DNA of 62,731 nucleotides from an uncultured Acetobacteraceae bacterium (GTDB lineage Bacteria; Acidobacteriota; Terriglobia; Terriglobales; Acidobacteriaceae). The notes below the pieces were generated by a model. The model had not been told where the DNA came from, did no database searches, and saw only the letters and a list, made by a program, of their open reading frames with translations. Each line of letters starts with the position of its first letter. Positions within the stretch are counted from its first letter, which is position 1. Shown here piece after piece: positions 7,854 through 46,154 of this stretch. The DNA lies in assembly GCA_964657465.1 (NCBI GenBank), contig CAZZVD010000002.1, positions 1 to 62,731 of the forward strand, given 5' to 3'. The translations under genes and the position numbers were made by a program.

Positions 7854-8417
7854 TCATGGTTGCTTTTGGACGGTGCCTGCGATGTAACTGGTAAAGCGTT
7901 GTGACGTCGCGGCTTGCGCAATCTGAAAATCGATGGCTAATCGACCGTTGGCCTGCTGGGCATAGGTGAAACGGAAGCGTGGAAAGCCGGCGGCGCCTTC
8001 CGTCGAAGTCATCACGACTTTAGCCGGAGATGAGCTGACCGACACGTTGAAGGTCAGAAAATGGCCCTCATTGTCAAATAGATCGGCGCGCTGCTTAAGT
8101 CCGTACAAATAGACGTACACGATGCTGCGGTAAGTAAATTCAGGCTTTCCCGCTTGCGCGGCGAACTGTTGCTGACTGGTAAACACAAGGACTTTGCCGT
8201 CCAGATCTTGTTTGAAGGTAAACTGTCCGGGACCCTCGCCGGCGAACCCTTTGCCGGTGCCCCCCCAGGTGCCCATGAGGAATTGCCAGTCCCGCCATTG
8301 ATACATGCGATCGCGCGCCGTACGGTAAGACAGATCCTGGGCGTCTACCTTTGGGTGCGGTGCCTGGGCCGGACATGCCATTGCAACCAGCAGTGCAGCA
8401 AGAGTAATCCGTTTCAT
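7854..8417 (-). CDS. Secreted hypothetical protein (paralog of 49963-50490)
   Basis: Signal peptide MKRITLAALLVAMACPAQA. Aligns along its length with the 49963-50490 product (GTWGG../GHWFA.., FDNEGH/FDNEGN, GRLAIDFQI/GKLAIKFEM). Starts 24 nt after the upstream gene's stop. Confidence 0.7.
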   Translation of the reverse strand: MKRITLAALLVAMACPAQAPHPKVDAQDLSYRTARDRMYQWRDWQFLMGTWGGTGKGFAGEGPGQFTFKQDLDGKVLVFTSQQQFAAQAGKPEFTYRSIVYVYLYGLKQRADLFDNEGHFLTFNVSVSSSPAKVVMTSTEGAAGFPRFRFTYAQQANGRLAIDFQIAQAATSQRFTSYIAGTVQKQP

Positions 8418-8441
8418 AGTTGCCTTTCATTCGCCAGCCAG

Positions 8442-9731
8442 TCACAGATCCAGGGTCGTAGAGTTGCGGTTGGGCAGTGTGCCTCGCTCATACGCTCGCT
8501 GGACGGTAGCGATCGATTCTGGTGTGTAGCGGCCGCTCAGTTTCGAACTCATGTCCGGCCGAGTGCGATACACGATTTCCTCAAGGTCCAGCAGGTGGCT
8601 GTGAAACGCAGCGGATAGGTCTTCAGCATGGCTGATCGCCGTTTCTCGGGCGATGTGTCGCGGGCCCAGGCTGGTGTGGGCGATCTCTGCAAACGACTGA
8701 AGTTGATGCTTTTTTAGCAGGGACGCGACCATTAGGTTTTTGCGGTCATTATGAATCTGTTGCGGTTCGTTAAAGGGGAAAAACATGTGGTAATTATGGC
8801 GATCACCGGTCACCGTGCGATAGGTGAGCATGGGAGTATCCGTCTCGCGTGCGGCGCGGACCAGATGCTTTTGGACAAAAAGCTCGAATTCCGGAACTGT
8901 CGGCATGTTCACATTCATCGATAGCTTTCGCCAGTAAGCACCGAAGCGAAAATAGCGCCTCTTGTTGAGAGGCGGCGCGTTGGTCACCTGGTCCCGATAG
9001 GCCAGGATTTTATCTGCCGCGGGCACGATGTATTTGTGGACGAAATCTTCAAACTCTGGCTCCACCCCCGGTTGCACGTAGAGATAAACAACGCGAAGAT
9101 ATCGTCCCAGATCATAGGGAACCTTCCCCGTCTCAGTCGCCGTCGCGCCGGTGTAGGACAACTCGGGCGCCACCAGGGCCACCGTTTTAGATTCCCCGAA
9201 CTGCATACCGTAGAGGTGTTTAAAGCGTTGCCATGATTCCGAAGCAGGGTCGAGTTCGTCGTCTCCCTTGTCCAGAGCCCACTGCACGCGCAGGGGCATG
9301 ATTTCGCTGTCGAGCTGATCGCCCAGGTTTTCAAAAGGAAACAACAGCGTGTACAAGTTGTCGCGCGCGGAGTCGCCGGTTTGATCTCTCAGGTAGCCTG
9401 CATTTGGGTTGTACTCCGACAGCTCGAGTTCGCAATCATCGAATGCATGATTGTGCAGATCGTAAGACATCTTGTGTGGGGCGGCGCCCGGAGGGCCAGG
9501 CTTGACCGCAGGAGGTTTGGGCTTTGTGAATCGTCTTTGCGCGGTAAGCCCAAACTGGGCTTGAACCGCTCCTCACGAGCCGCCGTCAGCCAGTTGCCGG
9601 AGCCGCGGCATAAGGTCCGAATTCGGACTGGGTACTGCCTTCTGTTTCTCAGGAACACTCTGACCCATTAGTCGGGAGGTTCCATATCCTAGAGCCGTCG
9701 TCGCAAGATGTAGAAAGGTTCGCCGTTTCAT
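8442..9731 (-). CDS. Candidate TAT-exported selenoprotein, uncharacterised family (in-frame UGA at 9573-9575 = codon 53); paralog of 36144-37430
   Basis: The ORF track splits it into 9573-9791 (MKRRTFLHL... twin-arginine signal) and 8442-9470. Both are in the same frame with no other stop between them. The sequence after the TGA (GAVQAQFGL) is conserved with the paralog. A SECIS-like hairpin lies 10 nt downstream. The gene lies directly downstream of selC-selA-selB. The conservative alternative is two separate ORFs. Confidence 0.6.
9541..9569 (-). promoter_or_regulatory. SECIS-like stem-loop downstream of the in-frame UGA
   Basis: Minus-strand reading: UGA-gga-GCGGT-tc-AAGCCCA-guu-UGGGCUU-ACCGC. 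The 17-nt upper hairpin (9546-9562) starts 10 nt after the UGA and has G-U in the apical loop. The lower stem has a 2-nt bulge. Confidence 0.55.
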
Positions 9732-9845
9732 AGTCACGACCTTTGTTGGTGAGCAAAACATAACATACAAATATCCGCAGCAACAAAACAAAGTTTATTA
9801 ATTACAATTTGCCCGCGCATCAACGAGCGGAGTCAATCGCTGTTG

Positions 9846-11774
9846 CTAAAGCACGAGACGCGAGTCACCATCGCGGCGAGTAAGTTTTGACTTGTCCAGG
9901 AACTCCAGCAAAGGGATGGCGTGCTTACGGGTTAACCCGGTCAGGTTTTTAAATTGCTGAACGTTGAGTGCCTTGCCTCTATAGGGCGCCAGCAGTGTGG
10001 CTAACCCTGAAACCGAGTCGTGGTGTAGGAACAGCGTGCCGTCTACCGGGATAAGAAGCCGCTCGCGCAACAGCGACGTCACCAGGGGCCTCACCGTCTG
10101 AGGGTCGAGACAGAGTTCTCCCAGAACTTCGGGAATGGAGCGCGCTGCCAGGGGAGATTTTTTGAAGGCAGCTAAAATGCTCAGTTGGATTCGCTTCTCC
10201 GCTACGCTTGCACCCACATGGTAGCCTGCCGGCGCGAGGAGGTCACCGGACACCCGCAACTTCTTATCCTGCATACCCTGAGCGACGATCGCGCCGAAAA
10301 TCCCGGACGGCAGCTTACTACGATTGAGCAACTCTGCCTTTCGCACCGCTCCTTCGTGCGGCCGAGCCTTAAGCAGCTGGGCCAGGTGTTGATCGAAGTG
10401 TTCGATGGCTAAGTGGTAGTGCGAGCTGGTTATCAGGCATTCTCCGCCGATGAGCAGGAGCCGCTGTTTTTGGGTGAGCGACGGCAACAATCGCTGCTTT
10501 ATCTCCTCCCCGGTGAGCAGCATCTCGCGGCAGGCCATGGACAGTTCGAGCCCCTGCATGCCTCGCCTTGCAGCGCGTTCGACTAACTCATCCGCGGGAT
10601 CCTTGATCTCTTGTAACTGCCGCAGCCACTGGTAGTTGTGCAGCTTCTTGATGCCAGGTAAGGGTTGGGCTTCAATCACGATTCCACCCCCAATGGTTCC
10701 AACGGGCGACGGCTGCCGCAGCACAAAGCGGTCGCCGCGGGCAACCAGTATGGGGCTCATCAATTTCAATCTGGCGAGGCCGCGGCTTCCTGCCGTCAGG
10801 GAAGTCTGGCTGTAGAGATTGACCCGCGCCACCACGTCTGTCGCGAAGACGTGCAAGTGCACCATGCTGCGATGTTTGAGCGTGGTGGCTCCCGGCGAGA
10901 GCGAAAGCTCAACATCGATAAGGTCCAGGGCTGCGATGGAATGCGTGGATACTAAGGTGTCGCCGCGCCTTACCTGATCGCGCTCGACCCCGGAGAGATT
11001 GAGGGCGACCCTGGTGCGCGAAGCTACATGCTGTACATGGCTGGAGTGGACCTGGATATTTCTTACTCGTACCTCTTTCCCCGACGGCTCCAGCACCAGC
11101 GATTGCCCCCTCGTCAGCTGGCCTGAAACCAGCGTCCCGGTAACGACGGTGCCGGCGCCTGTTATCGAGAAGGAGCGATCGATGGGCAGGCGCGCCGGTT
11201 GCCCTAGCCCTTGCGAAGGCAGGCCATGGGCCACTTTGCGCAGCGCAGCCTTAAGCTCGTTCAGACCAGTCCGCTGCAGGCTGCTTACGTGCAGTATGGG
11301 GTTGTGACGGCAGTCGAGGAATGTTCCGGACAAGAATTCCTCCACGTTCGTGTGCACCGTCTCTAGCCGATCCGGGCTTACGGCGTCGATCTTGGTGAGG
11401 ACGGTGATGCCGCGATCGATGCCAAGCAGGCTGCAGATCTCAAGATGTTCGACAGTTTGGGGGCGTATGCCATCGTCTGCAGCGATGACCAGAAGCACAC
11501 AGTTGATGCCGCCTGCGCCGGCCAACATATTGCGCACGAATAACTTGTGGCCGGGCACATCGACGAAGCTAACGCGTAGCGGAGAGCCATCGTCGAGTGC
11601 GTCATCCAGGAAGGCAAACCCCAGATCGATGGTGATGCCGCGCGCCTTCTCTTCCCGATGGGTATCCGTGTCGATTCCAGTAAGCGCCTTCACCAAGCTG
11701 GTTTTGCCGTGGTCGATGTGGCCGGCGGTACCAACAACCAGGTAGGTTGGATCGGTTTGCTGATGATTGATCAT
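9846..11774 (-). CDS. selB: Selenocysteine-specific translation elongation factor SelB
   Basis: N-terminal GTPase motifs (GTAGHIDHGKTSL, DVPGH, TKID) followed by a long winged-helix C-terminal extension. ATGA overlap with selA. Confidence 0.9.
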   Translation of the reverse strand: MINHQQTDPTYLVVGTAGHIDHGKTSLVKALTGIDTDTHREEKARGITIDLGFAFLDDALDDGSPLRVSFVDVPGHKLFVRNMLAGAGGINCVLLVIAADDGIRPQTVEHLEICSLLGIDRGITVLTKIDAVSPDRLETVHTNVEEFLSGTFLDCRHNPILHVSSLQRTGLNELKAALRKVAHGLPSQGLGQPARLPIDRSFSITGAGTVVTGTLVSGQLTRGQSLVLEPSGKEVRVRNIQVHSSHVQHVASRTRVALNLSGVERDQVRRGDTLVSTHSIAALDLIDVELSLSPGATTLKHRSMVHLHVFATDVVARVNLYSQTSLTAGSRGLARLKLMSPILVARGDRFVLRQPSPVGTIGGGIVIEAQPLPGIKKLHNYQWLRQLQEIKDPADELVERAARRGMQGLELSMACREMLLTGEEIKQRLLPSLTQKQRLLLIGGECLITSSHYHLAIEHFDQHLAQLLKARPHEGAVRKAELLNRSKLPSGIFGAIVAQGMQDKKLRVSGDLLAPAGYHVGASVAEKRIQLSILAAFKKSPLAARSIPEVLGELCLDPQTVRPLVTSLLRERLLIPVDGTLFLHHDSVSGLATLLAPYRGKALNVQQFKNLTGLTRKHAIPLLEFLDKSKLTRRDGDSRLVL

Positions 11775-13249
11775 GAAACTGACCGCGCGAGACCGATGGG
11801 ATGGCTGTTACCGATGACGGTTTTCAAATGGTTGATCAGAAGAGCATCGGACTCCGGCGTTATGGTCCGGAGGTCCAGAGCTACTGAGCCCTTGTAAGTC
11901 CTTGAGACTACTGGTGGGTCGAGTGACCGCAAAGCAGACGCGAGCGCGCCCGCGGTCCATGTCGGGTGATCCACGATCAGCAGAACGGTTTCGAGAGTTG
12001 CCCCCGGAGTCGTTCCTCCTCCGATCAGACTCGTGTCCGGTTGCAAATAGATCGTTGCGCCGGTCGTGCTCAGCGAGTCCCTGATATTTTCGGCCCGTGC
12101 CTGTAATCGCCCCAGCGTCTGTTGCAACATCCGGCTGATGGGAATATCGGGAGTTTGAAAGTCGAGGTACTCCTGCAGCGTACTGTCCAGCGCGGCGTAC
12201 ACCATTTTATCGACGCGGAACGTACGCAGCATGGGGTTTTGGCGGATACTCTCTATGGAACGGGACTGGCCGACAACGATTCCACACTGGGGACCGCCCA
12301 GCAACTTATCGCCGCTGCACACCACGATATGTACGCCGGCTTTGAGGCCTTTGATCAAGGTGTCTTCCCCAGAGATGCCATAGTCCTCCAGAACCAGCAG
12401 GCAGCCAGTGCCCTGATCTTCAAAGAGAATCTTGCCGTGTTCCTTGCACAGGGCGGCCAGGTCGGCTGAGGAAGGTGATTCCACGAAGCCGGTCATGGTG
12501 AAATTGGCGGGATGCACCCGCAAGAGCAAAGCGGTCTCCTCGGTGATCGCCTTGGCGTAGTCAGAGGCGCGCGTGCGATTGGTCGTCCCCACCTCGCGCA
12601 GGATCGCGCCGGACTTCGCGAGGATGTCAGGAATACGGAATCCGCCGCCAATTTCCAGAAGTTCCCCACGGGAGACGATGGTTTCCTTGCCGTCGGAAAG
12701 AGAATTCAGGACCAGGAAAGTAGCCGCCGCACAGTTGTTCACGACGATGGCGCGATAATCCTCCAGGAAATCCTGCAGCGGCAGACCGGCATGTTGTGCG
12801 AGCACGCGAAGCACCAACTGTTCAACATGGTCGTCGCGTTTGCCTCGCTCGCCAGTTGCCAGGTTGAATTCGAGATTGCAATAGCCGCCGGCAACGCGGG
12901 CAACATTTTCGAGCGCCTTTGCGCTTAAAGGAGCACGGCCCAGGTTGGTATGCAGCAAAACTCCTGTGGCATTCAGTACTGGCACCAGGGATGGACGGTT
13001 CGCGTCGCGGATGTGGTCGTGAATGGTCTGAGAGAGCCTGGATAACTCGGTTTCGAATGTATCCTCCTGTACTTCTCCGGAGGCGATTCGCTGGCGTAAC
13101 AATTGCAAACAGTCCCGGATGACGCGAATCACGAGATGCCGGGGGAAGTTCTTCAGCAGAGGTTTCAATTCCTCTGATCTTGCCAGTTCATCGATTGAGG
13201 GCAACCGGTGATAACTCATGAAGGCCGTTTTAGAGAGCGGGTCAATCAC
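11771..13249 (-). CDS. selA: L-seryl-tRNA(Sec) selenium transferase SelA
   Basis: N-terminal LPSIDELA motif, PLP-enzyme core and length fit SelA. The start is placed at GTG 13249 (GAGGA RBS 4 nt upstream); ATG 13219 is an alternative. The 13378 start in the ORF track would run through the tRNA-Sec gene. Confidence 0.85.
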   Translation of the reverse strand: MIDPLSKTAFMSYHRLPSIDELARSEELKPLLKNFPRHLVIRVIRDCLQLLRQRIASGEVQEDTFETELSRLSQTIHDHIRDANRPSLVPVLNATGVLLHTNLGRAPLSAKALENVARVAGGYCNLEFNLATGERGKRDDHVEQLVLRVLAQHAGLPLQDFLEDYRAIVVNNCAAATFLVLNSLSDGKETIVSRGELLEIGGGFRIPDILAKSGAILREVGTTNRTRASDYAKAITEETALLLRVHPANFTMTGFVESPSSADLAALCKEHGKILFEDQGTGCLLVLEDYGISGEDTLIKGLKAGVHIVVCSGDKLLGGPQCGIVVGQSRSIESIRQNPMLRTFRVDKMVYAALDSTLQEYLDFQTPDIPISRMLQQTLGRLQARAENIRDSLSTTGATIYLQPDTSLIGGGTTPGATLETVLLIVDHPTWTAGALASALRSLDPPVVSRTYKGSVALDLRTITPESDALLINHLKTVIGNSHPIGLARSVS

Positions 13250-13302: not shown

Positions 13303-13396
13303 TGGCGGAAGCGCGTGCGAGTCGAACACACCGTCGCCCGTAGGGACGACCACCGGTTTTGAAGACCGGGAGGATCACCGGAGCCTAAGCGCTTCC
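13303..13396 (-). tRNA. selC: tRNA-Sec (anticodon UCA)
   Basis: Minus strand: GGAAGCGC...CGGTCTTCAAAACCG...GTCGTCC-CTAC-GGGCGAC...GTGTG-TTCGACT-CGCAC-GCGCTTCC-G-CCA. It has an 8-bp acceptor stem, a 5-bp T stem, a 7-bp variable arm and a UCA anticodon. It closely parallels E. coli selC. Confidence 0.9.
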
Positions 13397-13468: not shown

Positions 13469-13918
13469 CTACACGGGATGGTGGGCGCCAGGGTGTGGAA
13501 CAATCTGGCAAAGCAGACGGGCTGCGCAATGAACATGACTTTCTACCTGAAACTCTCCGGAAATCTGGGCCGCGTAGTTGCGCAAGCCCAAAATCGTCGC
13601 TGTAATGGTTGCGCGATCGCCGGGCACGGGTGAGCCTGCGAAGCTGACCGATTCAATGGCTACCATGACCATCAAGCCGCCTTCTCTCGGAAGTGTCATG
13701 GTTGCCGATAACAGGACAGCACCTGCCTGGCCGATCGACTCCAGCATAAGCATTTCGGGTAATTCTCCTCCTCCACCGCAGTCACTAAAGGCCACATTCT
13801 TCAAAGCTGAAATACTCACACCGCGCTCTATCTGCAGGACCTTGTCTAGAAAAAGAAATGGATAGCGATGAGGGAGACTTTGAAGACTGATGGCGAAGCT
13901 GGAGGGAGAGCCGGCCAT
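13469..13918 (-). CDS. FabZ/FabA-like hotdog-fold protein (atypical active-site region)
   Basis: LPHRYPFLFLDKV and LESIGQAG motifs of 3-hydroxyacyl-ACP dehydratases are present. The GHFP histidine block is replaced by FSDCGGGGELP. The start was chosen to give FabZ-like length; longer starts at 13954 and 14098 are possible. Confidence 0.65.
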   Translation of the reverse strand: MAGSPSSFAISLQSLPHRYPFLFLDKVLQIERGVSISALKNVAFSDCGGGGELPEMLMLESIGQAGAVLLSATMTLPREGGLMVMVAIESVSFAGSPVPGDRATITATILGLRNYAAQISGEFQVESHVHCAARLLCQIVPHPGAHHPV

Positions 13919-14090
13919 GAAGTCATCGTCACTGTCTCCTGCGGTCGCAGTCATTAAATGCCCCAGACCGAGAGCATAGACCAGAAAAAGCGCACAGTGC
14001 TGGTCCGAAGTACAGTTGTCGCATAATCGCGTGTCCATTCTGCTAGAGCCTCGGGAGAACTCGGCGCCCTCAAAAGGTTGACTTCCACAA

Positions 14091-15533
14091 ATGCGCATTT
14101 TGCTTATACGGCCGCCTACCGAAACGTTTATTGTCTCGCCTCCGATCGGCCTGGGCTACCTGGCCACAGCACTTCGCTGTGCAGGACATCACCCGGAGAT
14201 ACTCGATTGCACGCTGACTTCGATGACGGCCAAGCAATTTGGCGAGTTTTTAGCGACGACGCCGCCGTTTCAGGTTTATGGCTTCCAGACTTATTCGTGT
14301 GAAGTAGATGTCGTGGAAAGCTGCCTGAAGGAGATAAAGCGGAGAGTTCCGAATGCGGTCACTGTGATTGGCGGCCCTCATCCTTCTGGTGGGCAGGAGT
14401 GCATGTTTGAGCTACCAGACGTGGATTTTGCGTTTCAGGGTGAGGCGGAGTTCGGCTTGCCGTTATTTTGCGACTTACTGGAAGCCGGTGACTCTCCAGA
14501 CCTGAGCCGGGTTCCTGGTCTTTTGTGGCGCGACGGCAATTGTGTTCGGGCCAATCCGAAGCACGCTGAAGCGGACCTTGATAAATTGGGGTTTCCCGCC
14601 TGGGATCTTATCGATCCGCGCAAATACCCAGTGGCTCCCCACGGAGGATTTGCTCGCTATTTTCCGGTTGCGCCTTTCATCATCTCGCGAGGCTGTCCGT
14701 ATTCTTGCACCTTCTGCGGAACGAAAAACGTGACCGGCATGAAAATGCGTTATCGCTCGATGGAGCACGTGATCGAGGAAATCCGCATGCTCCAGAACGC
14801 TTACGGGGTACGCGAATTGCATATTGAGGATGACAATTTCTCTGCTGTACGAAAAGAGATGAAAAAGTTTTGCAACAAGCTGATCGATGAGCAGGTGAAT
14901 ATTGCCTGGTATTGCACGAGCGGGCTGCGCCTCGACCTGATCGACGAGGAGCTGGCAATGCTGATGAAGAAGTCGGGTTGCTACACGGCAACGATTGCGA
15001 TCGAATCGGCGTCGCAGGCGACATTGAACCATATGAAAAAGAATCTCGACCTGGCCAAGGTTCCCGGCCAGGTCAGGTTATTGCGAAACGCCGGGCTCAC
15101 TCTGAATGCGCTTTTTATCCTCGGTTATCCTACCGAGACGCGTGGAGACATGGAGAAAACCATTCGCTATGCGATGAGCCTAGATGTGCAGCGCGCCCAG
15201 TTCTCGAACTTTCTCCCAATCCGCGGCACCGAGGCCTACGAATTTGTGAAGCAGCGGGGAGAAATCGAGGGTCTCGAACAGCGAAAGTTGCACACCGCGG
15301 ACAACCCGTACAGCCCACCCGGCATGACAACCTCAGAGCTGAAGTGGTTGCAGCGAAAAGGGTTTTTGTTTTTTCATCTGCGGCCAAGAATTCTTTGGGG
15401 TACGCTCACTAGCATCCGCTCCTTCTCGCAACTGTCATTCCTGCGGAAGAGATTGATCGAGTATTTGATTGGTCGAAAAAGAACGGGTGAACCCGGGATG
15501 CGAGAGAAAAACATCCTGGTCGAAGTCGTCTGA
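14091..15533 (+). CDS. B12-binding-domain radical SAM enzyme (class B type)
   Basis: N-terminal Rossmann-like B12-binding block (MRILLIRPP...PIGLGYLAT) and a CPYSCTFC (CX3CX2C) radical SAM cluster motif. Confidence 0.85.
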   Translation: MRILLIRPPTETFIVSPPIGLGYLATALRCAGHHPEILDCTLTSMTAKQFGEFLATTPPFQVYGFQTYSCEVDVVESCLKEIKRRVPNAVTVIGGPHPSGGQECMFELPDVDFAFQGEAEFGLPLFCDLLEAGDSPDLSRVPGLLWRDGNCVRANPKHAEADLDKLGFPAWDLIDPRKYPVAPHGGFARYFPVAPFIISRGCPYSCTFCGTKNVTGMKMRYRSMEHVIEEIRMLQNAYGVRELHIEDDNFSAVRKEMKKFCNKLIDEQVNIAWYCTSGLRLDLIDEELAMLMKKSGCYTATIAIESASQATLNHMKKNLDLAKVPGQVRLLRNAGLTLNALFILGYPTETRGDMEKTIRYAMSLDVQRAQFSNFLPIRGTEAYEFVKQRGEIEGLEQRKLHTADNPYSPPGMTTSELKWLQRKGFLFFHLRPRILWGTLTSIRSFSQLSFLRKRLIEYLIGRKRTGEPGMREKNILVEVV

Positions 15534-20278: not shown

Positions 20279-20752
20279 CTACTTGCCGGCTTGGTCGGCT
20301 AAGAATTGGTCGTAGGGGCCGTCGACAGTTACAAACAACACTGCCCCTTGCTGTGGCGATGTCGAGGTGCTGTGGGCCACGGTGGCAGGGGTGAAATTGA
20401 ATCCGCCGGGCCCGAGGAGAATCCTTTTGCCGGCCTCTTCGATGATAAGTGCGCCACTAATTACTGTATGCGTTTCGTTTGCGTGGTGCCAATGGCTGGG
20501 CACATGAAAATTCTTGGGCATGCGAATCATGAATTGAGTCAAATGAGAATCTGAGTCCTCGTGAAGCACCGCTCTCTCTGGAGAGGCTTTTCCGAGCGAT
20601 GGTTCCATCTTTTGCCAGTTCATCTGGGACCGATTGAGATTGATTGGTGAGGCCTGGCAGTTTGCAGATACCGGGATGTTTTCGGAACGAGTTACCAGGA
20701 CGACGAATGCGGCGGCAAAGAGTATACGGAGGGCAGGACGGGAAACGCTCAT
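20279..20752 (-). CDS. Secreted cupin-domain protein
   Basis: Signal peptide. Cupin motifs HWHHANETHTVISG ... GGFNFTPATVAH. Confidence 0.7.
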   Translation of the reverse strand: MSVSRPALRILFAAAFVVLVTRSENIPVSANCQASPINLNRSQMNWQKMEPSLGKASPERAVLHEDSDSHLTQFMIRMPKNFHVPSHWHHANETHTVISGALIIEEAGKRILLGPGGFNFTPATVAHSTSTSPQQGAVLFVTVDGPYDQFLADQAGK

Positions 20753-37437: not shown

Positions 37438-37470
37438 GGAGCCGGACTTGTGAGCCCGGCTCCATTTTCT
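37438..37470 (+). terminator. Rho-independent terminator after the selenoprotein candidate
   Basis: GGAGCCGG (37438-37445) pairs with CCGGCTCC (37456-37463), followed by attttctcatttt. Confidence 0.6.
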
Positions 37471-37518
37471 CATTTTCGACTCACGAGAGTCATTGTTCTA
37501 CAAGGATGGAGGAAGTCG

Positions 37519-37971
37519 ATGGAAGGTTTGCAGGTAAGAAAGACGGAGCCGTTGCACGTCGTGAGCTTTAAGCATAAAGGTCCATATCAAAATCTGCCCA
37601 AAGCGTATGAGCAGTTTGGTGGTTGGCTGGGACAGTCGAAAGCGCCAACGGCCGGATATTTTCGGGAGATTGGATACGACAACCCAATGATGACTCCGCC
37701 CGAAGAATGCAGGCAGGAGATATGCGTGCCTCTGGCCGGTCACGTAGTACCAGGAAATGGTGTGGAGGTAAAAACGTTACCCGTCGTCGAAGTAGTCTCG
37801 ATGGTGCACAAGGGAGGTCTCGATTTTGAATCGGTGGGGCCCACCTACCAGGCGATGATGAAGTGGTCTGCCGAACAACAACGGCCAACCACGTACTCCA
37901 TCATTACTTATTACACATCTCCAGATGAGAGAACCAACGCTGAAGTAGAAATCGCACTGGTTCTTGCGTAG
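37519..37971 (+). CDS. GyrI-like small-molecule-binding domain protein
   Basis: GGAGG RBS 6 nt upstream of ATG 37519. Pattern ...VVSFKHKGPYQNLPKAYEQF...YFREIGYDNP...EICVPL typical of GyrI-like/AraC-effector-binding domains. Confidence 0.65.
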   Translation: MEGLQVRKTEPLHVVSFKHKGPYQNLPKAYEQFGGWLGQSKAPTAGYFREIGYDNPMMTPPEECRQEICVPLAGHVVPGNGVEVKTLPVVEVVSMVHKGGLDFESVGPTYQAMMKWSAEQQRPTTYSIITYYTSPDERTNAEVEIALVLA

Positions 37972-37987
37972 TGGGTGCGGGCAGGAC

Positions 37988-39472: not shown

Positions 39473-39473
39473 C

Positions 39474-40169
39474 ATGATGGATGCCGCAATGGAGACGACC
39501 ACGGTAAGCGAGTTTGCCCGATGGAACGACGAGATGTTCGTTCGCTACGGCAACGAACGTCTTTATTTTCATTCCAACAAGATCATTCGCCATATACAGC
39601 AGTGCAGGGTGCGTACGATAGCAAGCTATCTGCAACTCGCTCCAGCCGATCGCCTGCTCGATGCCGGCACCGGAGAAGGATATCTCTTTTCGAAGCTACC
39701 CCGGGTCGCCAAACAAGTCGGCATCGATATCTCGGAAAGGGCTCTTTGCATTGCTCGTGCGAAAGAATACGAGAACGTGACATTTCTCCAGGCAGATGCT
39801 TCCAGGCTACCGTTCCCGGATGCGTCATTCGACAAGATCATTTGTTCCGAAGTGATTGAACACGTGCTGGAACCGAAGAAGGTTCTTTACGAGTTGGAAC
39901 GCGTTCTGCATCCTGGCGGCCGGCTGGTTATCACCATTCCTTATGAACGTCATCTCAACATGGTGAAGGATGTGTTCCTTAGTTCCAGCCTGGGACGGCA
40001 CTACTTCAATAATCTGCCCAGGAGAACCGAGTGGCATCGCACATTTTATTCGCCCGCTTTACTGGAAGACCAACTGAAAGACCAATTCAAAATCACTAAG
40101 AAATCCTGGTTACCGAACCGGCTGCTTCCTCTAGGATTGGCGGTTTGTTGTGAAAGGCTCTCTTCATAA
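39474..40169 (+). CDS. Class I SAM-dependent methyltransferase
   Basis: Motif I LLDAGTGEGYL, and post-I/II blocks (FLQADASRLPFPDASFDKIICSEVIEHV). Confidence 0.8.
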   Translation: MMDAAMETTTVSEFARWNDEMFVRYGNERLYFHSNKIIRHIQQCRVRTIASYLQLAPADRLLDAGTGEGYLFSKLPRVAKQVGIDISERALCIARAKEYENVTFLQADASRLPFPDASFDKIICSEVIEHVLEPKKVLYELERVLHPGGRLVITIPYERHLNMVKDVFLSSSLGRHYFNNLPRRTEWHRTFYSPALLEDQLKDQFKITKKSWLPNRLLPLGLAVCCERLSS

Positions 40170-40171: not shown

Positions 40172-40921
40172 ATGACGATGCCAAACGACAGGGAGCTCTG
40201 TGTTCTTTTTCTCTGCTATAACGATGCGGCGACGATCGAGTGGTGTGTTCGGCGCACGTATGCCACTTTGCAGGACGCGGTGAGCCGTTTGACGGTGATT
40301 GTGGTTAACGACGCGAGCTGCGACGGCAGCCAGGAAATCCTGGAGCGGCTGCGCAACGAATGCGAGGGAGTGATCATCGTGACCCACGCGAAGAATCTTG
40401 GATACGGTGCGAGTCTTTACGATGGAATGAAACATGCCACGGGCGATTATCTTCTTTGCTCCGATGGTGACGGCCAATTTGACCCGATGGATGGTTTGAA
40501 GCTGCTCGCAGCCATGGATGATGCGACGGATGTAGTAAGCGGCGTCCGGCGGCCGCGTGCCGACTCTTCCTATCGACGCCTGACCGGGCGTTTGTGTAAC
40601 TATGCCGTACGCAGGGTCTTGGCCCCAGAGCTGGAGGATGTAGATTGCGGCTTCAAGCTCTTTCGCATTCGATCGCTGCAGAGTCTTCTGCCGGTACGCT
40701 GCAACATGGCAGTCTGGGTTGAGATCTCTTCTCACGCTCATATTCTGAGCTACGTATTGAAGAGCGTGACTATCCAGCATCGCCCTAGGACTTCGGGCAA
40801 ATCTGCAGCGTTCACGGGACGCAACATTTGTCTCCTCCTTCGGGAGATCAGCGGTCTTTTCGCTGGCAGGATGTTTGCAGTATGGGCCCCGTTTTCTATC
40901 AAAGAAGCATACTGGCGGTAG
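40172..40921 (+). CDS. GT2-family glycosyltransferase (polyprenyl-phosphate sugar synthase-like, ArnC/DPM1-like)
   Basis: LCYNDAATIE...VIVVNDASCDGS...CSDGDGQFDP (DxD) pattern. Confidence 0.8.
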   Translation: MTMPNDRELCVLFLCYNDAATIEWCVRRTYATLQDAVSRLTVIVVNDASCDGSQEILERLRNECEGVIIVTHAKNLGYGASLYDGMKHATGDYLLCSDGDGQFDPMDGLKLLAAMDDATDVVSGVRRPRADSSYRRLTGRLCNYAVRRVLAPELEDVDCGFKLFRIRSLQSLLPVRCNMAVWVEISSHAHILSYVLKSVTIQHRPRTSGKSAAFTGRNICLLLREISGLFAGRMFAVWAPFSIKEAYWR

Positions 40922-40952
40922 CTGTCTGCCGGCCCAAGACTGCAGGAAAAAA

Positions 40953-41969
40953 ATGAATGCCGTATCAGCTCAGACGATATCCCGGAACGTGGTTTTTGGC
41001 GGGCGAGGCTTTCTGGGGTCGGCGCTGGTTCGAGCCCTGATAAATGCGGGCGAGCGGGTGCTGGTGGTAGATAAGCCCTACCGTGCCGATTCTGGAGTCT
41101 TATCAAGCTATGGCGAACTGGTCGAATTCCTGCCAGCTTCAACGCCATCCGATCCAGCGGCACTTGGCGCTTTGCGACCCGATGACACGTTGTTTTACCT
41201 GTGGTCCGGCGGTGAACTCAATACCCGGGCTGAAGACCTAGGAACACTGTTACAAAAGATCCTGGAACCCGCAACCAAGGTCCTGGCGGCAGCCTCGCGC
41301 GCCGGTATACGACAGGTCGTGTTTGCATCATCGGGGGGTACGCTGTACGGCCCTTCCTCTTGTGGCAACCTTCGCGAAGACCAGCCGGTGCACGCGATCA
41401 ACACGTACGGTATGCTCAAAGTTGCCTTAGAGCAGATGCTGTCTGTGTTTCGCGCGCAATCCGGCTTGCCCTACACTGTGCTGCGTATAGCCAATGCATA
41501 TGGCCCGGGAGCTCAACACTCACCCAGACAAAACCTCATCGCCAACCTGTGCCGGTGCGCCTACCAGGGCGTTCCATTTACGATTTGGGGCGACGGTTCC
41601 ACGGTTCGCGATTATGTTTACGTGGACGATGTAGCCTATGCATTCCTGCTAACCAAAGCGGCAAGACCGGATTCCGCCGTGTTTAACATCGGCACGAGCC
41701 GTGGAACCAGTGTTCTTGAAATAACCAGACTCGTGGAAAGCGTAGCTGGTACCCGCATGGATCTGAGATTCGAAGCTGCGCGAAGGTGTGATGTTGCCAG
41801 CAGCGTACTCGACGCGAGTAAAGCGTGGCGGGAGCTCTGTTGGAAGGCGCGAATACCGCTCGAAACCGGTATCTTGCGTACATGGAGACGAACTGTATCG
41901 GTGGATGACCCACTTGCAGCAAATCGAGGTGAGCAATGGCTAAATATGGGAATAGGCACAAATCATTGA
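40953..41969 (+). CDS. NAD-dependent sugar epimerase/dehydratase
   Basis: GGRGFLGSAL Rossmann motif and the catalytic YGMLK (YxxxK). Confidence 0.8.
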   Translation: MNAVSAQTISRNVVFGGRGFLGSALVRALINAGERVLVVDKPYRADSGVLSSYGELVEFLPASTPSDPAALGALRPDDTLFYLWSGGELNTRAEDLGTLLQKILEPATKVLAAASRAGIRQVVFASSGGTLYGPSSCGNLREDQPVHAINTYGMLKVALEQMLSVFRAQSGLPYTVLRIANAYGPGAQHSPRQNLIANLCRCAYQGVPFTIWGDGSTVRDYVYVDDVAYAFLLTKAARPDSAVFNIGTSRGTSVLEITRLVESVAGTRMDLRFEAARRCDVASSVLDASKAWRELCWKARIPLETGILRTWRRTVSVDDPLAANRGEQWLNMGIGTNH

Positions 41970-42442
41970 GTGTGTTCGCTGCCGCTTGTCTTTTACCAGG
42001 ATGGGGAGTGGTTCAGGTCGCGGCGCAGGAGAAAGAAGAAGCTGCGGTGGTGTTGGATAACAAAGACGCCTCAAAATTTGCCCAGGCCCCGGGATTAATG
42101 CCCCCGTGCTTTCAGGGAGCGATGCAACGCATCATTCCGGCGACAGGGGGCGCCGTATTCCTGGTGAAGGCTGCGGAAAGCGGTTGCGATGTGCCCTGGC
42201 ACTGGCACTCCTCGGGGGAGCAGATCACAGTGGTCAGCGGAGAAGTACAGATTGCGATGCGGGGTGAGCGCGCGATCACACTCAAGGCGGGGGGCTACGC
42301 CTACATGCCGGCCCACCATATTCACTCCTTTCGTTGCGCTGGACCATGCCAACATTTCGTGCAAAGCGATGGTCTATATGACATTCACTTCGTCAACGGC
42401 CAAGACACCGAAATCAGCATGGCTGAGGCGCTTAAAAGATAA
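41936..42442 (+). CDS. Secreted cupin-domain protein (second copy of the type at 20279-20752)
   Basis: Signal peptide. Cupin motifs WHWHSSGEQITVVSG ... GGYAYMPAHHIHSF. Confidence 0.7.
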   Translation: MAKYGNRHKSLSVFAAACLLPGWGVVQVAAQEKEEAAVVLDNKDASKFAQAPGLMPPCFQGAMQRIIPATGGAVFLVKAAESGCDVPWHWHSSGEQITVVSGEVQIAMRGERAITLKAGGYAYMPAHHIHSFRCAGPCQHFVQSDGLYDIHFVNGQDTEISMAEALKR

Positions 42443-42447: not shown

Positions 42448-42885
42448 TCAGCTCACCAGCAATCGGTCTTCACGATAAATAGCAGCTGCTATGCCTGCTC
42501 CAGCAAAAGAGGATATAAGTCCGGCGATACACCCCCACAAGAGTAAGTCGTGCGGGATGTCACCCAGGGCGACTTGTTCAACGGCATTGAGAACCCATCC
42601 CAGGACCCACAAAGTGAGCGCTGTATAAAGAACCGCCTGTAGTTTGTGCGGGAATCTCCGCAGCAGCGCTGCATAGAGCCAGACAGCCGCCAATCCCCAT
42701 GCAAGTGCGACCACAGCCCACAGTCCCCGAGCTGCGTTCTGCGCCGGCGGTTTATCCAGGGGTCCTAATGCAGCAGCCCAGGCTGACCACCGCGCACCCA
42801 GAAAGATTCCATTTACTGCCGTCTCGACAATATTGATGACAACGCCGGCAACCAGGCCGCCAATAAGAATCCGCTTCAGGTTCAT
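42448..42885 (-). CDS. Small integral membrane protein, hypothetical
   Basis: Four hydrophobic segments. Last gene of the minus-strand ABC operon. Confidence 0.55.
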   Translation of the reverse strand: MNLKRILIGGLVAGVVINIVETAVNGIFLGARWSAWAAALGPLDKPPAQNAARGLWAVVALAWGLAAVWLYAALLRRFPHKLQAVLYTALTLWVLGWVLNAVEQVALGDIPHDLLLWGCIAGLISSFAGAGIAAAIYREDRLLVS

Positions 42886-42906
42886 TCCATCTCCTCATTC
42901 GGGGCT

Positions 42907-43587
42907 TTAAACGATCGATGTGACAGGCACAAGCGAAGCTTTCTCCAGATGCCGAATTTCATCTGCATACGATGCAGCTTCAGGGTCGTGCGTAACCATA
43001 ATCACCGTTTTGTTGTGATACTCGTTGAGCTTCTGGAAGATTTCAAGAATTTGCGATGCGGATGCGCGATCCAGATCGCCCGTGGGCTCGTCCGCAAGAA
43101 GGATGGCCGGGTCGGTTGCTATCGCTCTGGCGATAGCAACGCGTTGTTCCTGGCCTCCAGAGAGTTGTTTGGGAAGATGACCTGCGCGATCTACTACACC
43201 GACAAGTTCGAGCGCGTTGATTACATGGTCGCGACGGGTTTTCTTGTTTAGTCCGGTCAATAACAGCGGCAGTTCAACGTTCTCGAAGGCCGTGAGGACC
43301 GGGATGAGGTTGAACGTTTGAAACACATAGCCGATGTTACGATTTCTCCATTGAGAGGCACGGCCATCGTTCAAAGCGCTGATATCTTCACCCTCGACGC
43401 GGACTACTCCGCTGCTCGGACGATCGATGCACGCAATCAGATTCAGCAGGGTAGTCTTACCCGATCCCGAGGGCCCCATGAGCGCGAGGAATTCGCCGTT
43501 AGAAATATCGAGGTCAACGCAGTCTAATGCGAGTACGTCGAAGCTATCGCGGCGGAAGATCTTGGTTACTTTGTCCAGGTTGATCAT
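42907..43587 (-). CDS. ABC transporter ATP-binding protein (MacB/LolD type)
   Basis: Walker [10 protein letters not shown], signature LSGGQEQR, Walker [12 protein letters not shown]. Confidence 0.9.
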
Positions 43588-43608
43588 ACAATCGGGCTCC
43601 GGCGATAC

Positions 43609-44976
43609 TTAATGATGCGTTTTTGTTGCTGGCCCGTTCACTACGTGAACTGCGTTGCCGTTTTCGAGGTTCGGATCGGGGTTCATCACTGCCTCTTCGC
43701 CGGCATCCACGCCATCTAGTATCCATCCGTCGGCTCGCTTCTTTTTAAGATTTACCGTCCTCTGCTTTACCCGCCCGTCCTCCACCACAAAAGCAACGTC
43801 ACGACCTTCGCGGCTCACAAGGGCCCTGGCAGGAAGAAAGGACCGTTGGCGTACGACGCCGGCCGGCGCCCCGGCGGAGCCAACAAAATCCACTGTTGCA
43901 TTCATCTCCGGCCGCAGAAAGGCGTCGGGCTGGCGGATTTTAATGCGCACGTTGACAGTGCCTTTTTGACGGTCACCCTCGGGTGAGACCTCACGGATAA
44001 CTCCCTGATATTTACGATCCGGGTAGGCATCGGTATAAATAACGCAGTTCGGTTTGGACTGAATCACCGCAAGTTCTTCCTGGCCAATATCAGCGTCGAC
44101 TTGCAGATCGTTGAGATCGGCGAGAACGACGACCGACCCGCGTGGGCCGCCGGTATCGAGACCGCTGGCGAACTCCGCCGTAATCAATTCTCCGCGTTCG
44201 GCGGTTCGCTCCAGGATGGTTCCTGCCGTGGGTGCTTTGATCACGGTTGCAGCCAGCTGAGCTCTTGCAAAAGCCAGGCGGCCTTCGGCCGCGAGTTCCG
44301 TACCTCGTGCACGTTCAATCTCTTCGCGGCGGGAGCCGAGTTTGGCCAGCGTGTAGGTCTCTTCGAGCGAGCGGACGTGATGGGAGGAACTGCTTGCCTG
44401 GGCTTCCGCCTCTTCCAGCTGTTGCCTGGAGGCGATGTTGGCGTCAAAAAGGGCCTTGGCCCGGGCGAGGGTTTTTTGGTCGTTCTCGGCGACCGCCCGT
44501 GCTTGTTCCAGATCCTGCTGGGCGCGGTTGATTTCCTGGGAGCGCAGGCCGTTCTTGGTTTGCAGCATCGTGGCTTTTTCGCTCACCAATTCACCTTCAG
44601 CTTGCTGCACCTGGGCCCGGAACTCGTCGTCTTCGAGCCGGACAAGAACCTGGCCTTTACTGACGTTGTCGCCCTTTTCTACGCCGATCCACGCGACTCG
44701 TCCGGTGACCTTGGAGTTCACGTCGATGCGGTGATGGGGAACGATGTAGCCGGAAGCCGAAAGGATGGTGCCGTGATCAGGCGGGTTTTCTGGCTCCGCG
44801 CGGACAACGGTGACCGCCGCCCCCCGGCTGGCAATGCGGGTTGTCACAGCAACGATTGCTATCAATACGGAGATGACGAGCGCGATGACTACGCCGAGGC
44901 GGCGCCTTGCTCGCCGGCCCGTCTCCGGCGAGCGATGGAGCCGTAAATCGTTGAGCGCATCAGTCCTAATCGCCAC
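43609..44976 (-). CDS. Periplasmic adaptor (HlyD/MacA membrane-fusion protein)
   Basis: N-terminal TM anchor, a long coiled-coil (AQVQQAEGEL...QQLEEAEAQA), and barrel-sandwich motifs. Confidence 0.85.
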   Translation of the reverse strand: MAIRTDALNDLRLHRSPETGRRARRRLGVVIALVISVLIAIVAVTTRIASRGAAVTVVRAEPENPPDHGTILSASGYIVPHHRIDVNSKVTGRVAWIGVEKGDNVSKGQVLVRLEDDEFRAQVQQAEGELVSEKATMLQTKNGLRSQEINRAQQDLEQARAVAENDQKTLARAKALFDANIASRQQLEEAEAQASSSSHHVRSLEETYTLAKLGSRREEIERARGTELAAEGRLAFARAQLAATVIKAPTAGTILERTAERGELITAEFASGLDTGGPRGSVVVLADLNDLQVDADIGQEELAVIQSKPNCVIYTDAYPDRKYQGVIREVSPEGDRQKGTVNVRIKIRQPDAFLRPEMNATVDFVGSAGAPAGVVRQRSFLPARALVSREGRDVAFVVEDGRVKQRTVNLKKKRADGWILDGVDAGEEAVMNPDPNLENGNAVHVVNGPATKTHH

Positions 44977-44993
44977 ATTGCCTCACAGCATGC

Positions 44994-46154
44994 CTACCTG
45001 CGAATTGCCACTTTGATGTCGCCGGTGGAGGCTACGAACGCGGGGAACAAGCCTCCACACAGCCCGAGCAGGATGGCGAGCGACAGCCCGCATGCAAAAA
45101 CCGTTGGGCTGAAGCGCAACGTGAAGACAAGCTCACTGAAAGTAAATCCGTTGAATGTTCCGGTCGTGAGGTCCCAAAAAGGTGTGGTTTCCAGCACGCC
45201 CAGAACTGCGCCAACCAGTGCTATGGCCAGCGACTCAGTGAGGTATGCCGTCAAAATATCGCTCCGGCTAAAACCCAGAACCCTCAAGGTCGCAGTATCG
45301 GTTGTGCGGCTTGCAACAGTAGTGAGCATTGTATTCAAAATTGCAAAATAGCAGCCCAACGCCAGGATCGCCGCCGTAATGGCGGCTGCCAGTTCGACCG
45401 TGCTGCCTACACTTCTTTGCGCCCGATAGTAATCTGCCTCAGCCACTGCGTGCAGGTGCAGCCTGTTATCTGCCCTTAGGCGTTCCACGAGGTTCGCTTT
45501 ATCTTTGGGATCGTTCACTTTCAGTAGAAACGATGAGAACAGCGGGCGACCGAGGGCGTTGGCCACCATCTCCTGGCTCGACAACAGTTCCGATTCTTGA
45601 GCGGTGTTGGTTTCGCTGAAGACCCCCACGACGTTCCAGTCGCCTTTGCCAAAGTGGATGGAATCGCCTTCGTTCGTCCCGGAAAAGCGCCGCTGGATCG
45701 ACTCGCTGACCACAAGTTCCCGCACGCCCGGGTTAAACCATCGGCCGCTCACCAGCTTCAAATCCGGCCGAAGGTCGAAGCTGGCGGGTTGAATTCCTCG
45801 AACAGTGACATTGACGTCGCCTGTCCCGTCTTTTCGGGGAAGCAAAACGATGCTAATCGTTTCTCCGGCGAGTACGGGTTCCCCGTTCCGATCGCGTGCT
45901 ATGCCTGGCATATTCTTCACAATCGCCAAAGTCGATCGCGGAAGCATGCTCATGTATTCCGATTCTGAACCTGTGCGTGTGGCAATAACATTTGCCGGTT
46001 GGCCAGTGTGTGCAAAAATATCTCGGATGCTGGTGTACACGGCCAGCACGAGAAGAGTAACCGCCACGCTAAGGCTGATGGCGCAGCAGGTGGCTGCGGT
46101 GGCACTGCGTCTCAGCCACAGACTTTTGATGTTGTAGATCAGGGGAACTGCCAT
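44994..46154 (-). CDS. ABC transporter permease, FtsX/MacB type
   Basis: MacB periplasmic domain followed by an FtsX domain (LRVLGFSRSDILTAYL). Confidence 0.85.
   Translation of the reverse strand: MAVPLIYNIKSLWLRRSATAATCCAISLSVAVTLLVLAVYTSIRDIFAHTGQPANVIATRTGSESEYMSMLPRSTLAIVKNMPGIARDRNGEPVLAGETISIVLLPRKDGTGDVNVTVRGIQPASFDLRPDLKLVSGRWFNPGVRELVVSESIQRRFSGTNEGDSIHFGKGDWNVVGVFSETNTAQESELLSSQEMVANALGRPLFSSFLLKVNDPKDKANLVERLRADNRLHLHAVAEADYYRAQRSVGSTVELAAAITAAILALGCYFAILNTMLTTVASRTTDTATLRVLGFSRSDILTAYLTESLAIALVGAVLGVLETTPFWDLTTGTFNGFTFSELVFTLRFSPTVFACGLSLAILLGLCGGLFPAFVASTGDIKVAIRR

Follow-up and report, generated by a model that had tools for sequence, protein, structure and literature searches.

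Most of the selenoproteins known from prokaryotes are thiol-type redox proteins or enzymes of respiration and fermentation. Periplasmic formate dehydrogenases (FdnG/FdhA type) possess a twin-arginine signal and a UGA-encoded selenocysteine (Sec) with a SelB-type hairpin downstream, often with the sel genes nearby. Genes of selenium metabolism lie beside biosynthetic genes in the selenoneine (SenABC) pathway and in the clusters for Sec-containing ribosomally synthesized and post-translationally modified peptides (selenobacteriocin/selenobiotic). Highly reducing type II polyketide synthase (PKS) and aryl-polyene systems, such as that of ishigamide (Iga11-Iga12, PDB 6kxd), make use of an active ketosynthase (KS) paired with an inactive chain length factor (CLF), together with a discrete acyl carrier protein (ACP), ketoreductase (KR) and dehydratase (DH). 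Features of these systems are found together in the DNA considered here, positions 1 to 62,731 of contig CAZZVD010000002.1 (GenBank assembly GCA_964657465.1), from an uncultured bacterium named as a member of the Acetobacteraceae and placed by GTDB in the Acidobacteriota (Acidobacteriaceae). This whole stretch of 62.7 kb is referred to below as the window, and its gene content was read from a map of open reading frames (ORFs) and from Pfam and NCBIfam scans. Two of its genes encode candidate selenoproteins, SelenoA and SelenoB, which, judging by their conservation, look like real paralogs of a previously undescribed selenoprotein family. They lie in what is probably the window's copy of a rare, conserved gene cluster of Acidobacteriota, extending here from about 7.3 to 53.6 kb and including a KS-CLF core. 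What emerges is a selenoprotein family that is new, set among known biosynthetic parts in a combination that is new as well.

SelenoA (8442-9731, minus strand; 429 aa) and SelenoB (36144-37430, plus strand; 428 aa) are 58% identical, and both are predicted to be exported by the twin-arginine translocation (Tat) pathway. Read-through of a single TGA (9573-9575 in SelenoA, giving Sec53, and 36339-36341 in SelenoB, giving Sec66) joins a twin-arginine signal to a large downstream ORF in each. The signals (MKRRTFLHL and MKRRLFLKSG) are of the S/T-R-R-x-F-L-K type followed by a hydrophobic stretch, as judged by eye. They had been noted in the initial annotation of this region, and the motif is indeed present in both paralogs and in nearly all relatives, every one of which keeps the two arginines except for a single member (related locus L002, approximately 9689-9865), in which they are replaced by KRK. 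An identical hairpin of 17 nt (AAGCCCA-GUU-UGGGCUU, 7 bp and a 3-nt loop), resembling a selenocysteine insertion sequence (SECIS), stands behind both TGAs, at 9546-9562 (-), 10 nt past the UGA of SelenoA, and at 36352-36368 (+) for SelenoB. The combination of a TGA, 12 nt and the hairpin core occurs twice in the window, against 0.13 occurrences expected by chance. An in-frame TGA at the homologous position after the twin-arginine signal is present in 22 distinct sequences and in three contigs found independently (L031-L033), and TGA and hairpin are kept together in 25 related loci. In the alignment of the 22 sequences, the 7-bp helix (columns 26-32/36-42) is 96.8% paired, compensatory changes have occurred at three pairs (GC<->UA 12:9; AU<->GC 16:6), and the first two bases of the loop (G33, U34) are invariant. 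The observed covariation score was reached by none of 500 shuffles, and slid-partner controls scored far lower. Some of the compensatory changes alter amino acids (QSRFGI versus QAQFGL), and it is thus the RNA structure, not the peptide alone, that is under selection. A longer SECIS with a lower stem (columns 19-22 with 44-47) was ruled out, at 48.9% pairing. The conserved TGA and the covarying hairpin in relatives bear out the earlier identification of these genes as selenoprotein genes.

The hairpin resembles the minimal E. coli fdhF SECIS: it is a 17-nt stem-loop that begins 10-11 nt past the UGA, has an invariant G and U at the first two positions of the loop, and agrees with the spacing and loop rule of that element. 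Unlike the fdhF element, it has a three-base loop and no bulged U in the stem, and a lower stem is unsupported. No Rfam family covers it. The encoded proteins share the twin-arginine signal, the UGA with its downstream hairpin and the proximity of sel genes with periplasmic formate dehydrogenase, but they have no molybdopterin or Fe-S domain and no similarity to it in sequence or fold; their Sec is located on an N-terminal arm, some 30-40 residues past the signal peptide, and their context is biosynthetic rather than respiratory. In three relatives, Asp (GAC/GAT) takes the place of the TGA (L003, 10001-11251; L021, approximately 4351-5442; and L022; proteins P0040 and P0042). These genes are continuous ORFs that include the Tat signal; the hairpin is broken, and the QFG motif is kept. 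The Asp-type members are found in a GyrI-FGE-cupin-orph342 context. Homologs with an aligned Cys are usual, though not obligatory, for selenoproteins. None was found among the orthologs of this family, the non-Sec members of which carry only Asp. SelenoB has no cysteine at all, and the only one in SelenoA is not conserved. The residue at the Sec position of the Mo/W-bisPGD family can be Sec, Cys, Ser or Asp, a range that parallels the Sec/Asp exchange seen here. Given that Asp rather than Cys replaces Sec and that there is no conserved cysteine, and also in view of the conserved histidines (HNY and FHSH are among the conserved motifs) and of the Tat export that is predicted, Sec probably, with modest confidence, acts either as a covalent nucleophile or by binding a metal or cofactor at a His-rich site, and not as part of a thiol redox couple.

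The part of the protein following Sec was modeled with AlphaFold2 (pLDDT 84, pTM 0.84) as a series of beta-alpha-beta units. In a Foldseek comparison with the PDB, one domain matched the NIPSNAP structure 5ixu with a probability of 1.0, but with an E-value of 0.01 and a whole-chain TM-score of about 0.2. Other weak matches were an anthrone-oxidase-like antibiotic biosynthesis monooxygenase (ABM; 5f9p), WhiE-ORFI (9lmn), sulfur oxygenase reductase and chlorite dismutase, with ferredoxin-like barrels. The model points to an alpha+beta domain of about 330 residues with a putative ferredoxin-like (NIPSNAP/ABM-type) core, preceded by a flexible N-terminal Sec arm. Such units would be in keeping with the ABM/NIPSNAP superfamily of dimeric alpha+beta barrels, which includes polyketide tailoring proteins such as 5f9p and 9lmn and from which the selenoprotein differs in lacking profile-level sequence similarity, in being exported, in its larger size (about 330 residues, with fused units) and in possessing the Sec arm; the description "ABM-like tailoring enzyme" would be only a lead.

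The family is rare. The homolog search yielded 42 clusters among 5.8 billion proteins, almost all of them entries truncated at the UGA by gene callers, and genome-mining tools therefore miss the signal peptide and Sec. An exhaustive profile search of 1.84 billion representatives gave 12 hits, only two with E <1e-30; the others were fragments or distant relatives and, among the distant relatives examined, two had signal peptides of the general secretory type and none had a Sec arm. One of 185,579 species genomes carries the family, a metagenome-assembled genome (MAG) of Acidobacteriota with two copies, and a MAG named Candidatus Sulfotelmatobacter sp. is the source of one member. Neither the full protein nor any of the 42 members matched a Pfam family, there was no NCBIfam match, and a profile search of PDB sequences at E-values up to 10 found nothing. 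A 2026 census that lists 119 families of prokaryotic selenoproteins (PMC13188914) includes nothing comparable. The initial annotation knew of no described pathway of this kind; this agrees with a search of the literature available, which found no paper joining a selenoprotein, a biosynthetic gene cluster and a ketosynthase. Searches that paired Acidobacteria with enediynes, aryl polyenes or type II PKSs yielded no description of the cluster, and a search on UnbL, UnbV and UnbU returned unrelated word matches only.

In searches starting from the selenoprotein, longer contigs showed the same gene families around it, although not every family on each contig. Its recurrent neighbors are one of two B12-binding radical S-adenosylmethionine (SAM) enzymes (rSAM1 or rSAM2), cupins, a LuxR-family regulator, two ATP-binding cassette (ABC) systems, a GT-C-type glycosyltransferase, a DUF5655 protein, a GyrI-like protein and a LolA-FGE fusion. 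Several contigs also carry the block ACP-KS-CLF-KS-DUF1702-UnbV-TPR340-RnfD-like-thiolase near the selenoprotein gene. TPR340 (25618-26664, -) is a cluster-specific orphan that marks the KS/Unb sub-cluster and has only 20 homologs among 5.8 billion proteins, at least eight of them on contigs already known for the selenoprotein. In the reverse search, starting from TPR340, all three new contigs fetched had, no more than about 5 kb away, a selenoprotein-type gene complete with TGA and hairpin. The link between the selenoprotein and the rSAM/KS/CLF genes is thus conserved in both search directions, and on the contigs examined the modules do not occur independently of one another, as would be expected if their adjacency were coincidental. 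L031 is a compact version of the entire cluster, and one MAG has A-type (SelenoA-like) and B-type (SelenoB-like) copies separated by transporters, in the same layout as in the window. In L032, the CLF, UnbV, RnfD-like, thiolase and selenoprotein genes are in fragments, which looks like the result of frameshift errors in assembly rather than biology.

These comparisons alter the outline of the cluster. Every gene listed in the initial annotation was recovered at its position by Pfam and NCBIfam, but the limits of about 38 kb proposed there (7854-46154) are wrong on both sides, as conserved genes continue to the DUF5655 gene (7278) on the left and to UnbV (53634) on the right. The region had been described as lying between two secreted paralogs; the left one holds (sec187, 7854-8417), whereas position 46154 belongs to an FtsX gene and the true right-hand paralog is at 49963-50490. 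What had been described as duplicated modules are not recent copies: rSAM1 and rSAM2 share just 28% identity, the orphans encoded after them show no relationship to each other, and the pairs of radical SAM enzyme and orphan were rejected as duplicates. The modules appear from sequence comparison to be two ancient paralogous sets (A and B types), both of which are also present in one related MAG. The "three FtsX-type ABC systems" proved to be three FtsX permeases belonging to two systems, one LolCDE-like and one MacAB-like.

The biosynthetic core of the cluster (assigned with Pfam unless otherwise stated, as are the genes below) consists of an ACP (31351-31602, -; PP-binding), the active ketosynthase KS1 (30173-31336, -), a CLF-like inactive partner (28977-30200, -) and a second active ketosynthase, KS3 (27697-29028, -), in which Cys-His-His is present according to Pfam, PDB and sequence inspection. 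KS1 contains the motifs ACTAG, HGT and GHT, whereas the CLF has SNGL, no HGT, and GEC, the catalytic Cys and both His residues being replaced. An active KS, a paralogous partner devoid of the catalytic residues and a discrete ACP are the hallmarks of a KS-CLF system. KS1 (285 bits) and the CLF have their best PDB matches in two chains (B and C, respectively) of a single heterodimer (9s5h/9s5i), which may be the nearest characterized KS-CLF heterodimer; the next closest matches of the pair are FabF and the ishigamide KS. A FabG-like KR (24816-25568, -; adh_short_C2/KR), a FabZ/FabA-like dehydratase (13469-14098, -; FabA) and an adenylating enzyme of the benzoate-CoA ligase family (17727-19142, +; AMP-binding; TIGR02262 324 bits against a cut-off of 375) complete this set. 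The cluster resembles highly reducing type II PKS and aryl-polyene systems in its KS with an inactive CLF, its discrete ACP, KR and DH, and its adenylating enzyme of the aryl-acid type, and differs from them in its additional active KS, B12-radical SAM enzymes, enediyne-type accessory proteins and selenoproteins. Housekeeping fatty acid synthesis was considered and rejected, as the NCBIfam equivalog scores fall under the cut-offs for KS1 (316 versus 494), KS3 (199 versus 494), KR (FabG, 231 versus 298) and DH (FabZ, 75.6 versus 113). An aromatic, actinorhodin-type, type II PKS was also rejected: no cyclase/aromatase family was found in Pfam scans of the cluster. The actinorhodin KS and CLF rank well beneath the FabF-like matches for both KS1 and the CLF.

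The cluster encodes members of two families known from enediyne clusters and a possible member of a third. A DUF1702 protein (26681-27730, -; PF08012, E 1.2e-26) belongs to the UnbL/E3 family of enediyne clusters, which is annotated as an enediyne biosynthesis protein (PMC7692728). The UnbV_ASPIC/FG-GAP protein (51472-53634, -; PF07593, E 4e-22) is a member of the UnbV/E4 family, with orthologs 55-60% identical located between DUF1702 and TPR340 in relatives, where the DUF1702 and UnbV genes are adjacent. An integral membrane protein of 317 aa (50515-51468, -), with a weak Pfam match to NQR2_RnfD_RnfE, is RnfD/NqrB-like, has orthologs 50-57% identical beside TPR340 and UnbV in relatives, and is a possible counterpart of UnbU/E5. 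In all complete relatives, DUF1702, UnbV_ASPIC and the membrane protein adjoin the ketosynthases, the first two recalling the enediyne warhead cassette (PKSE, thioesterase, UnbL/E3, UnbV/E4 and UnbU/E5). An enediyne cluster proper was rejected, there being no iterative type I enediyne PKS (PKSE) or thioesterase in the window or in related loci, and a discrete KS/CLF instead.

All four Sec-decoding genes announced in the initial annotation lie inside the window: selB, encoding the Sec-specific elongation factor (9846-11774, -; GTP_EFTU, Beta-barrel_SelB and SelB-wing_3), selA, encoding selenocysteine synthase (11771-13219, -; SelA, E 1.9e-115), with its start inferred at MSYHRL, selC, the tRNA-Sec with anticodon UCA (13303-13396, -; ARAGORN; Rfam RF01852, 71.7 bits) and selD, encoding the Cys form of selenophosphate synthetase (19172-20242, +; TIGR00476, 379 bits against a cut-off of 125). 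In the window, the genes selC, selA, selB, SelenoA and sec187 follow one another in a single run of the same direction, and the AMP-ligase and cupin 1 genes flank selD. The embedding of this machinery in the cluster is specific to the lineage of the window, and selABCD were ruled out as a conserved part of the cluster, since selA, selD and tRNA-Sec were found near the selenoprotein on no other contig examined, and selB on only one. On that contig (P0003, JGI 3300047160), integrase/transposase fragments (rve_3) separate selB from the selenoprotein gene and selA was not called, which suggests a recent rearrangement around the sel genes. The cluster is like the selenoneine and Sec-containing peptide systems in having genes of selenium metabolism beside biosynthetic genes, but selenium is used here as ribosomal Sec in a folded protein of 430 residues rather than as a small-molecule donor or in a modified peptide. 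A selenoneine-like pathway (selD, glycosyltransferase and FGE) was rejected on two grounds: the SenA model gives 93 bits (cut-off 420) and covers the FGE domain only, and SelD is canonical and accompanied by selA, selB and selC.

The selenoproteins have secreted partners. The 187-aa protein sec187 (7854-8417, -), predicted to be a secreted beta-barrel of the nitrobindin/FABP type, is encoded by the gene immediately following that of the A-type selenoprotein in the majority of A-type loci, many of which have it twice. Its AlphaFold2 model is of moderate quality (pLDDT 69), the homolog search having yielded five sequences only, and Foldseek matches it to nitrobindin and to the polyketide spirocyclases OssO and OlmO at a probability of 1.0, with TM-scores of 0.5-0.65; Rv2717c and retinoic-acid-binding proteins are further close structures. 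Its second secreted paralog in the window, p175 (49963-50490, -), is 27% identical to it (blastp, E 1e-11); like UnbV and the RnfD-like protein, it is 50-60% identical to a gene that adjoins DUF1702 and the KS genes in relatives. The B-type selenoprotein is preceded by the secreted orphan orph342 (35119-36147, +), the stop codon of which overlaps the ATG of SelenoB (ATGA) and orthologs of which, 44-54% identical, immediately precede the B-type and Asp-type genes at 12 loci. Two secreted cupins are also encoded: cupin 1 (20279-20752, -; DUF4437/Cupin_2), with orthologs 46-58% identical beside the A-type selenoprotein, and cupin 2 (41936-42442, +), with orthologs in L003 and L021.

Several enzymes could modify the product. 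The first B12-binding radical SAM enzyme, rSAM1 (14091-15533, +), has orthologs 66-69% identical that adjoin the LuxR, cupin and SelenoA genes in relatives; orthologs of the second, rSAM2 (33550-35106, +), are likewise 66-69% identical and are found in L002, L009, L026, L031 and L032. The gene following rSAM1 encodes a secreted orphan of 650 aa (15579-17531, +), with no Pfam or NCBIfam match and no match in the other loci. The LuxR/GerE-family regulator (24093-24881, +) is conserved beside rSAM1 in relatives. A GT-C-type (PMT_2) membrane glycosyltransferase (31802-33553, +) has orthologs 41-45% identical upstream of orph342 and SelenoB in L005, L018, L025 and L028. Downstream of SelenoB, a GyrI-like small-molecule-binding protein (37450-37971, +) and a secreted protein or lipoprotein in which a LolA-like domain is fused to an FGE-sulfatase domain (37964-39472, +) are both conserved in L003, L021, L031 and L032. 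The FGE-sulfatase domain scores 96 bits with EgtB and 93 bits with SenA, both far under the cut-offs; it is a possible lead to C-S or C-Se chemistry in this selenium-linked cluster. A SAM methyltransferase (39405-40169, +), a GT2 glycosyltransferase (40172-40921, +) and an NAD-dependent epimerase/dehydratase (40875-41969, +) follow, the first two of which are conserved in L002 and L026. Export may be provided by the LolCDE-like ABC system, consisting of an FtsX protein (20782-22002, -), an ATPase (22111-22854, +) and an FtsX/MacB_PCD protein (22851-24089, +), which is conserved in L001, L003, L005, L024, L025 and L028, and by the MacAB-like system (42448-46154, -), which comprises a 145-aa membrane protein, an ATPase (42907-43587), an HlyD-family adaptor (43609-44976) and an FtsX/MacB protein (44994-46154), and is conserved in L001, L004/5, L017, L024, L025, L028 and L030.

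Judging by family membership, the KS1-CLF heterodimer, the second KS, the ACP, the KR and the FabZ-like dehydratase would build an unsaturated or polyene-type acyl chain, the starter unit of which may be activated by the benzoate-CoA-ligase-like enzyme. The two B12-radical SAM enzymes, the methyltransferase and the glycosyltransferases would then modify this chain, and the DUF1702/UnbL protein, UnbV and the RnfD-like membrane protein would process it further. The LolCDE-like and MacAB-like pumps and the LolA-like carrier could move the product across the envelope. Outside the cytoplasm, the selenoproteins would act on it together with sec187 as a barrel for hydrophobic ligands (A type), orph342 (B type), the cupins and the FGE-like protein. 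They would perform a redox or covalent tailoring step on a hydrophobic product, or quench it, with the Sec arm folding back into the barrel domain; such periplasmic action on the product, proposed as a working hypothesis in the initial annotation, is plausible. This explanation as a whole, a conserved cluster with exported selenoproteins acting on a product made by a KS-CLF system, is given a probability of about 0.6. Several observations weigh against it. The cluster lacks a thioesterase and a type I enediyne PKS. Counterparts of the KR, the FabZ-like dehydratase, the AMP-ligase and the 650-aa orphan were not seen in the visible stretches of relatives, and the exact enzyme set, and with it the product class, is uncertain. 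Only weak structural matches were obtained for the selenoprotein (best E 4.6e-3, whole-chain TM-score about 0.2), the Tat signals were assessed by motif alone, and the Asp variants show that Sec is dispensable to the family. All the relatives are known from metagenomic contigs, and some of these are fragmented. In 30 fetched loci, no selA, selB, selD or tRNA-Sec was detected up to 10 kb from the selenoprotein; according to its gene table, only the P0003 contig, which carries the closest relative (62% identity), has selB about 3 kb from the selenoprotein gene.

The most basic objection would be that the TGAs are true stops, with two distinct ORFs, a short one resembling a signal peptide and another one downstream of it, in the same frame by chance, as the splitting of the family's database entries at the TGA by gene callers might suggest. 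This is very improbable: 25 loci share the frame, the location of the TGA and a covarying hairpin at a constant distance from it, the window has two occurrences of the pattern against the 0.13 expected by chance, the Asp variants are uninterrupted ORFs that include the Tat signal, the downstream part has no signal peptide of its own, and the Sec machinery is adjacent. A different question is whether that machinery is dedicated to the pathway. The sel genes often adjoin a genome's main selenoprotein gene, and the chance that theirs is an ordinary neighborhood, with other selenoproteins possibly encoded elsewhere in the organism, is only a little below even. The lack of selA, selD and tRNA-Sec near the selenoprotein on all other contigs examined, the single recurrence of selB, with insertion sequence fragments in between, and the shuffled gene order around the modules among relatives all fit such a neighborhood. 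The co-directional run from selC to sec187 and the position of selD between the AMP-ligase and cupin 1 genes argue for a closer tie, as does the fact that no further selenoprotein was noticed among the ORFs examined in the window, in which no systematic scan for in-frame TGAs was made. An ordinary neighborhood would in any case weaken only the word "dedicated", and not the conserved presence of the selenoprotein in the cluster.

Other explanations concern what the selenoproteins do. They might be protective, scavenging redox-active species in the periplasm or serving as covalent sinks, so that the cell, or an oxygen-sensitive polyene or enediyne-like product, is kept from damage, and be co-inherited as self-resistance. 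Most known bacterial selenoproteins have redox or antioxidant functions (PMC13188914), the genes are always beside efflux pumps and a LuxR regulator, a lone Sec on an exposed arm has no resolving Cys, and the enediyne-type accessory genes hint at a reactive product. However, there is no thioredoxin-like fold and no UxxC/CxxU motif, the replacement of Sec by Asp is a poor fit to a scavenger of the thiol-peroxidase type, and the pairing with a spirocyclase-like ligand-binding barrel suits an enzyme with a substrate carrier equally well; a protective role is considered quite unlikely. It is also unlikely, if less markedly so, that the cluster makes no secondary metabolite and instead remodels the cell envelope with an unusual glycolipid or lipoprotein anchor, made with the help of Lol-like transport, the GT-C and GT2 enzymes and methylation of acyl chains by the B12-radical SAM enzymes and served by the selenoproteins as periplasmic metalloproteins. 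The best scores of the KS, KR and DH genes are with FabF, FabG and FabZ models, LolCDE-like, LolA-like, GT-C and GT2 genes are present, and relatives have a fatty-acid desaturase and a CMAS-like methyltransferase, all of which would suit this role. Nevertheless, a cluster found in one of 185,579 species is too rare for a core envelope function, every score of the fatty acid synthesis type is under its curated cut-off, DUF1702 and UnbV are otherwise tied to enediyne clusters, and a KS-CLF heterodimer is typical of PKS-like systems. The preferred reading, exported selenoproteins acting on a KS-CLF-made product, can be narrowed to a Tat-exported selenoenzyme family dedicated to the maturation of a polyketide or lipid product, in which a Sec on a mobile N-terminal arm, interchangeable with Asp and serving as a metal ligand or covalent nucleophile, acts on a reactive polyene- or enediyne-like lipid built by the discrete KS-CLF enzymes together with UnbL/UnbV/UnbU-type proteins; in this specific form it is possible but doubtful.

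If it is true, this would be the first ribosomally made selenoenzyme in a polyketide/lipid-type biosynthetic cluster, selenium availability would control the chemistry of the product, and a simpler, non-actinomycete setting would be available for studying the roles of enediyne E3, E4 and E5 proteins. The family widens the known uses of selenocysteine, because of its new fold context, predicted Tat export, lack of a Cys partner and relatives with Asp rather than Cys. The covarying hairpin provides a clean SECIS variant for expression, and compact relatives such as L031 are a defined target for heterologous expression. The cluster, which comes from a soil bacterium of the Acidobacteriota, is of clear interest to specialists in selenium biology and natural products.

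The gene content of the cluster and its surroundings shows some further variation. Relatives have a fatty-acid desaturase, a CMAS-like methyltransferase, a third B12-radical SAM enzyme and a thiolase, none of which is found in the window (extra enzymes at L002 15672-16577, L026 15659-16456 and L001 12344-13543), and the enzyme set varies between lineages, as the product probably does too. The DUF4287/DUF5655 protein (7278-7838, +) is a recurrent cluster-edge gene, copies of which, 60-65% identical, adjoin the module with the selenoprotein in L005, L018, L025 and L028; further occurrences are on the P0003 contig and in L029. A phosphonate-type ABC operon (46425-49776), encoding a binding protein, an ATPase and a double-length permease, is unmatched in relatives and gives the impression of an insertion splitting the conserved cluster. 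A second phosphonate-binding-like gene is located at 55915-56769. The flanking stretches that are apparently unrelated to the cluster (59006-61738, 1544-4006, 501-1193 and 6002-6090) carry a Ser/Thr kinase with TPR repeats, an SLT-domain TPR protein, an ECF sigma factor and a tRNA-Leu(UAA). Beyond UnbV, an ORF at 56670-57980 gives weak TusA (sulfur-carrier) and DUF455/AurF-like di-iron oxygenase signals, and an acyl-CoA dehydrogenase gene (54236-55393) lies near it.

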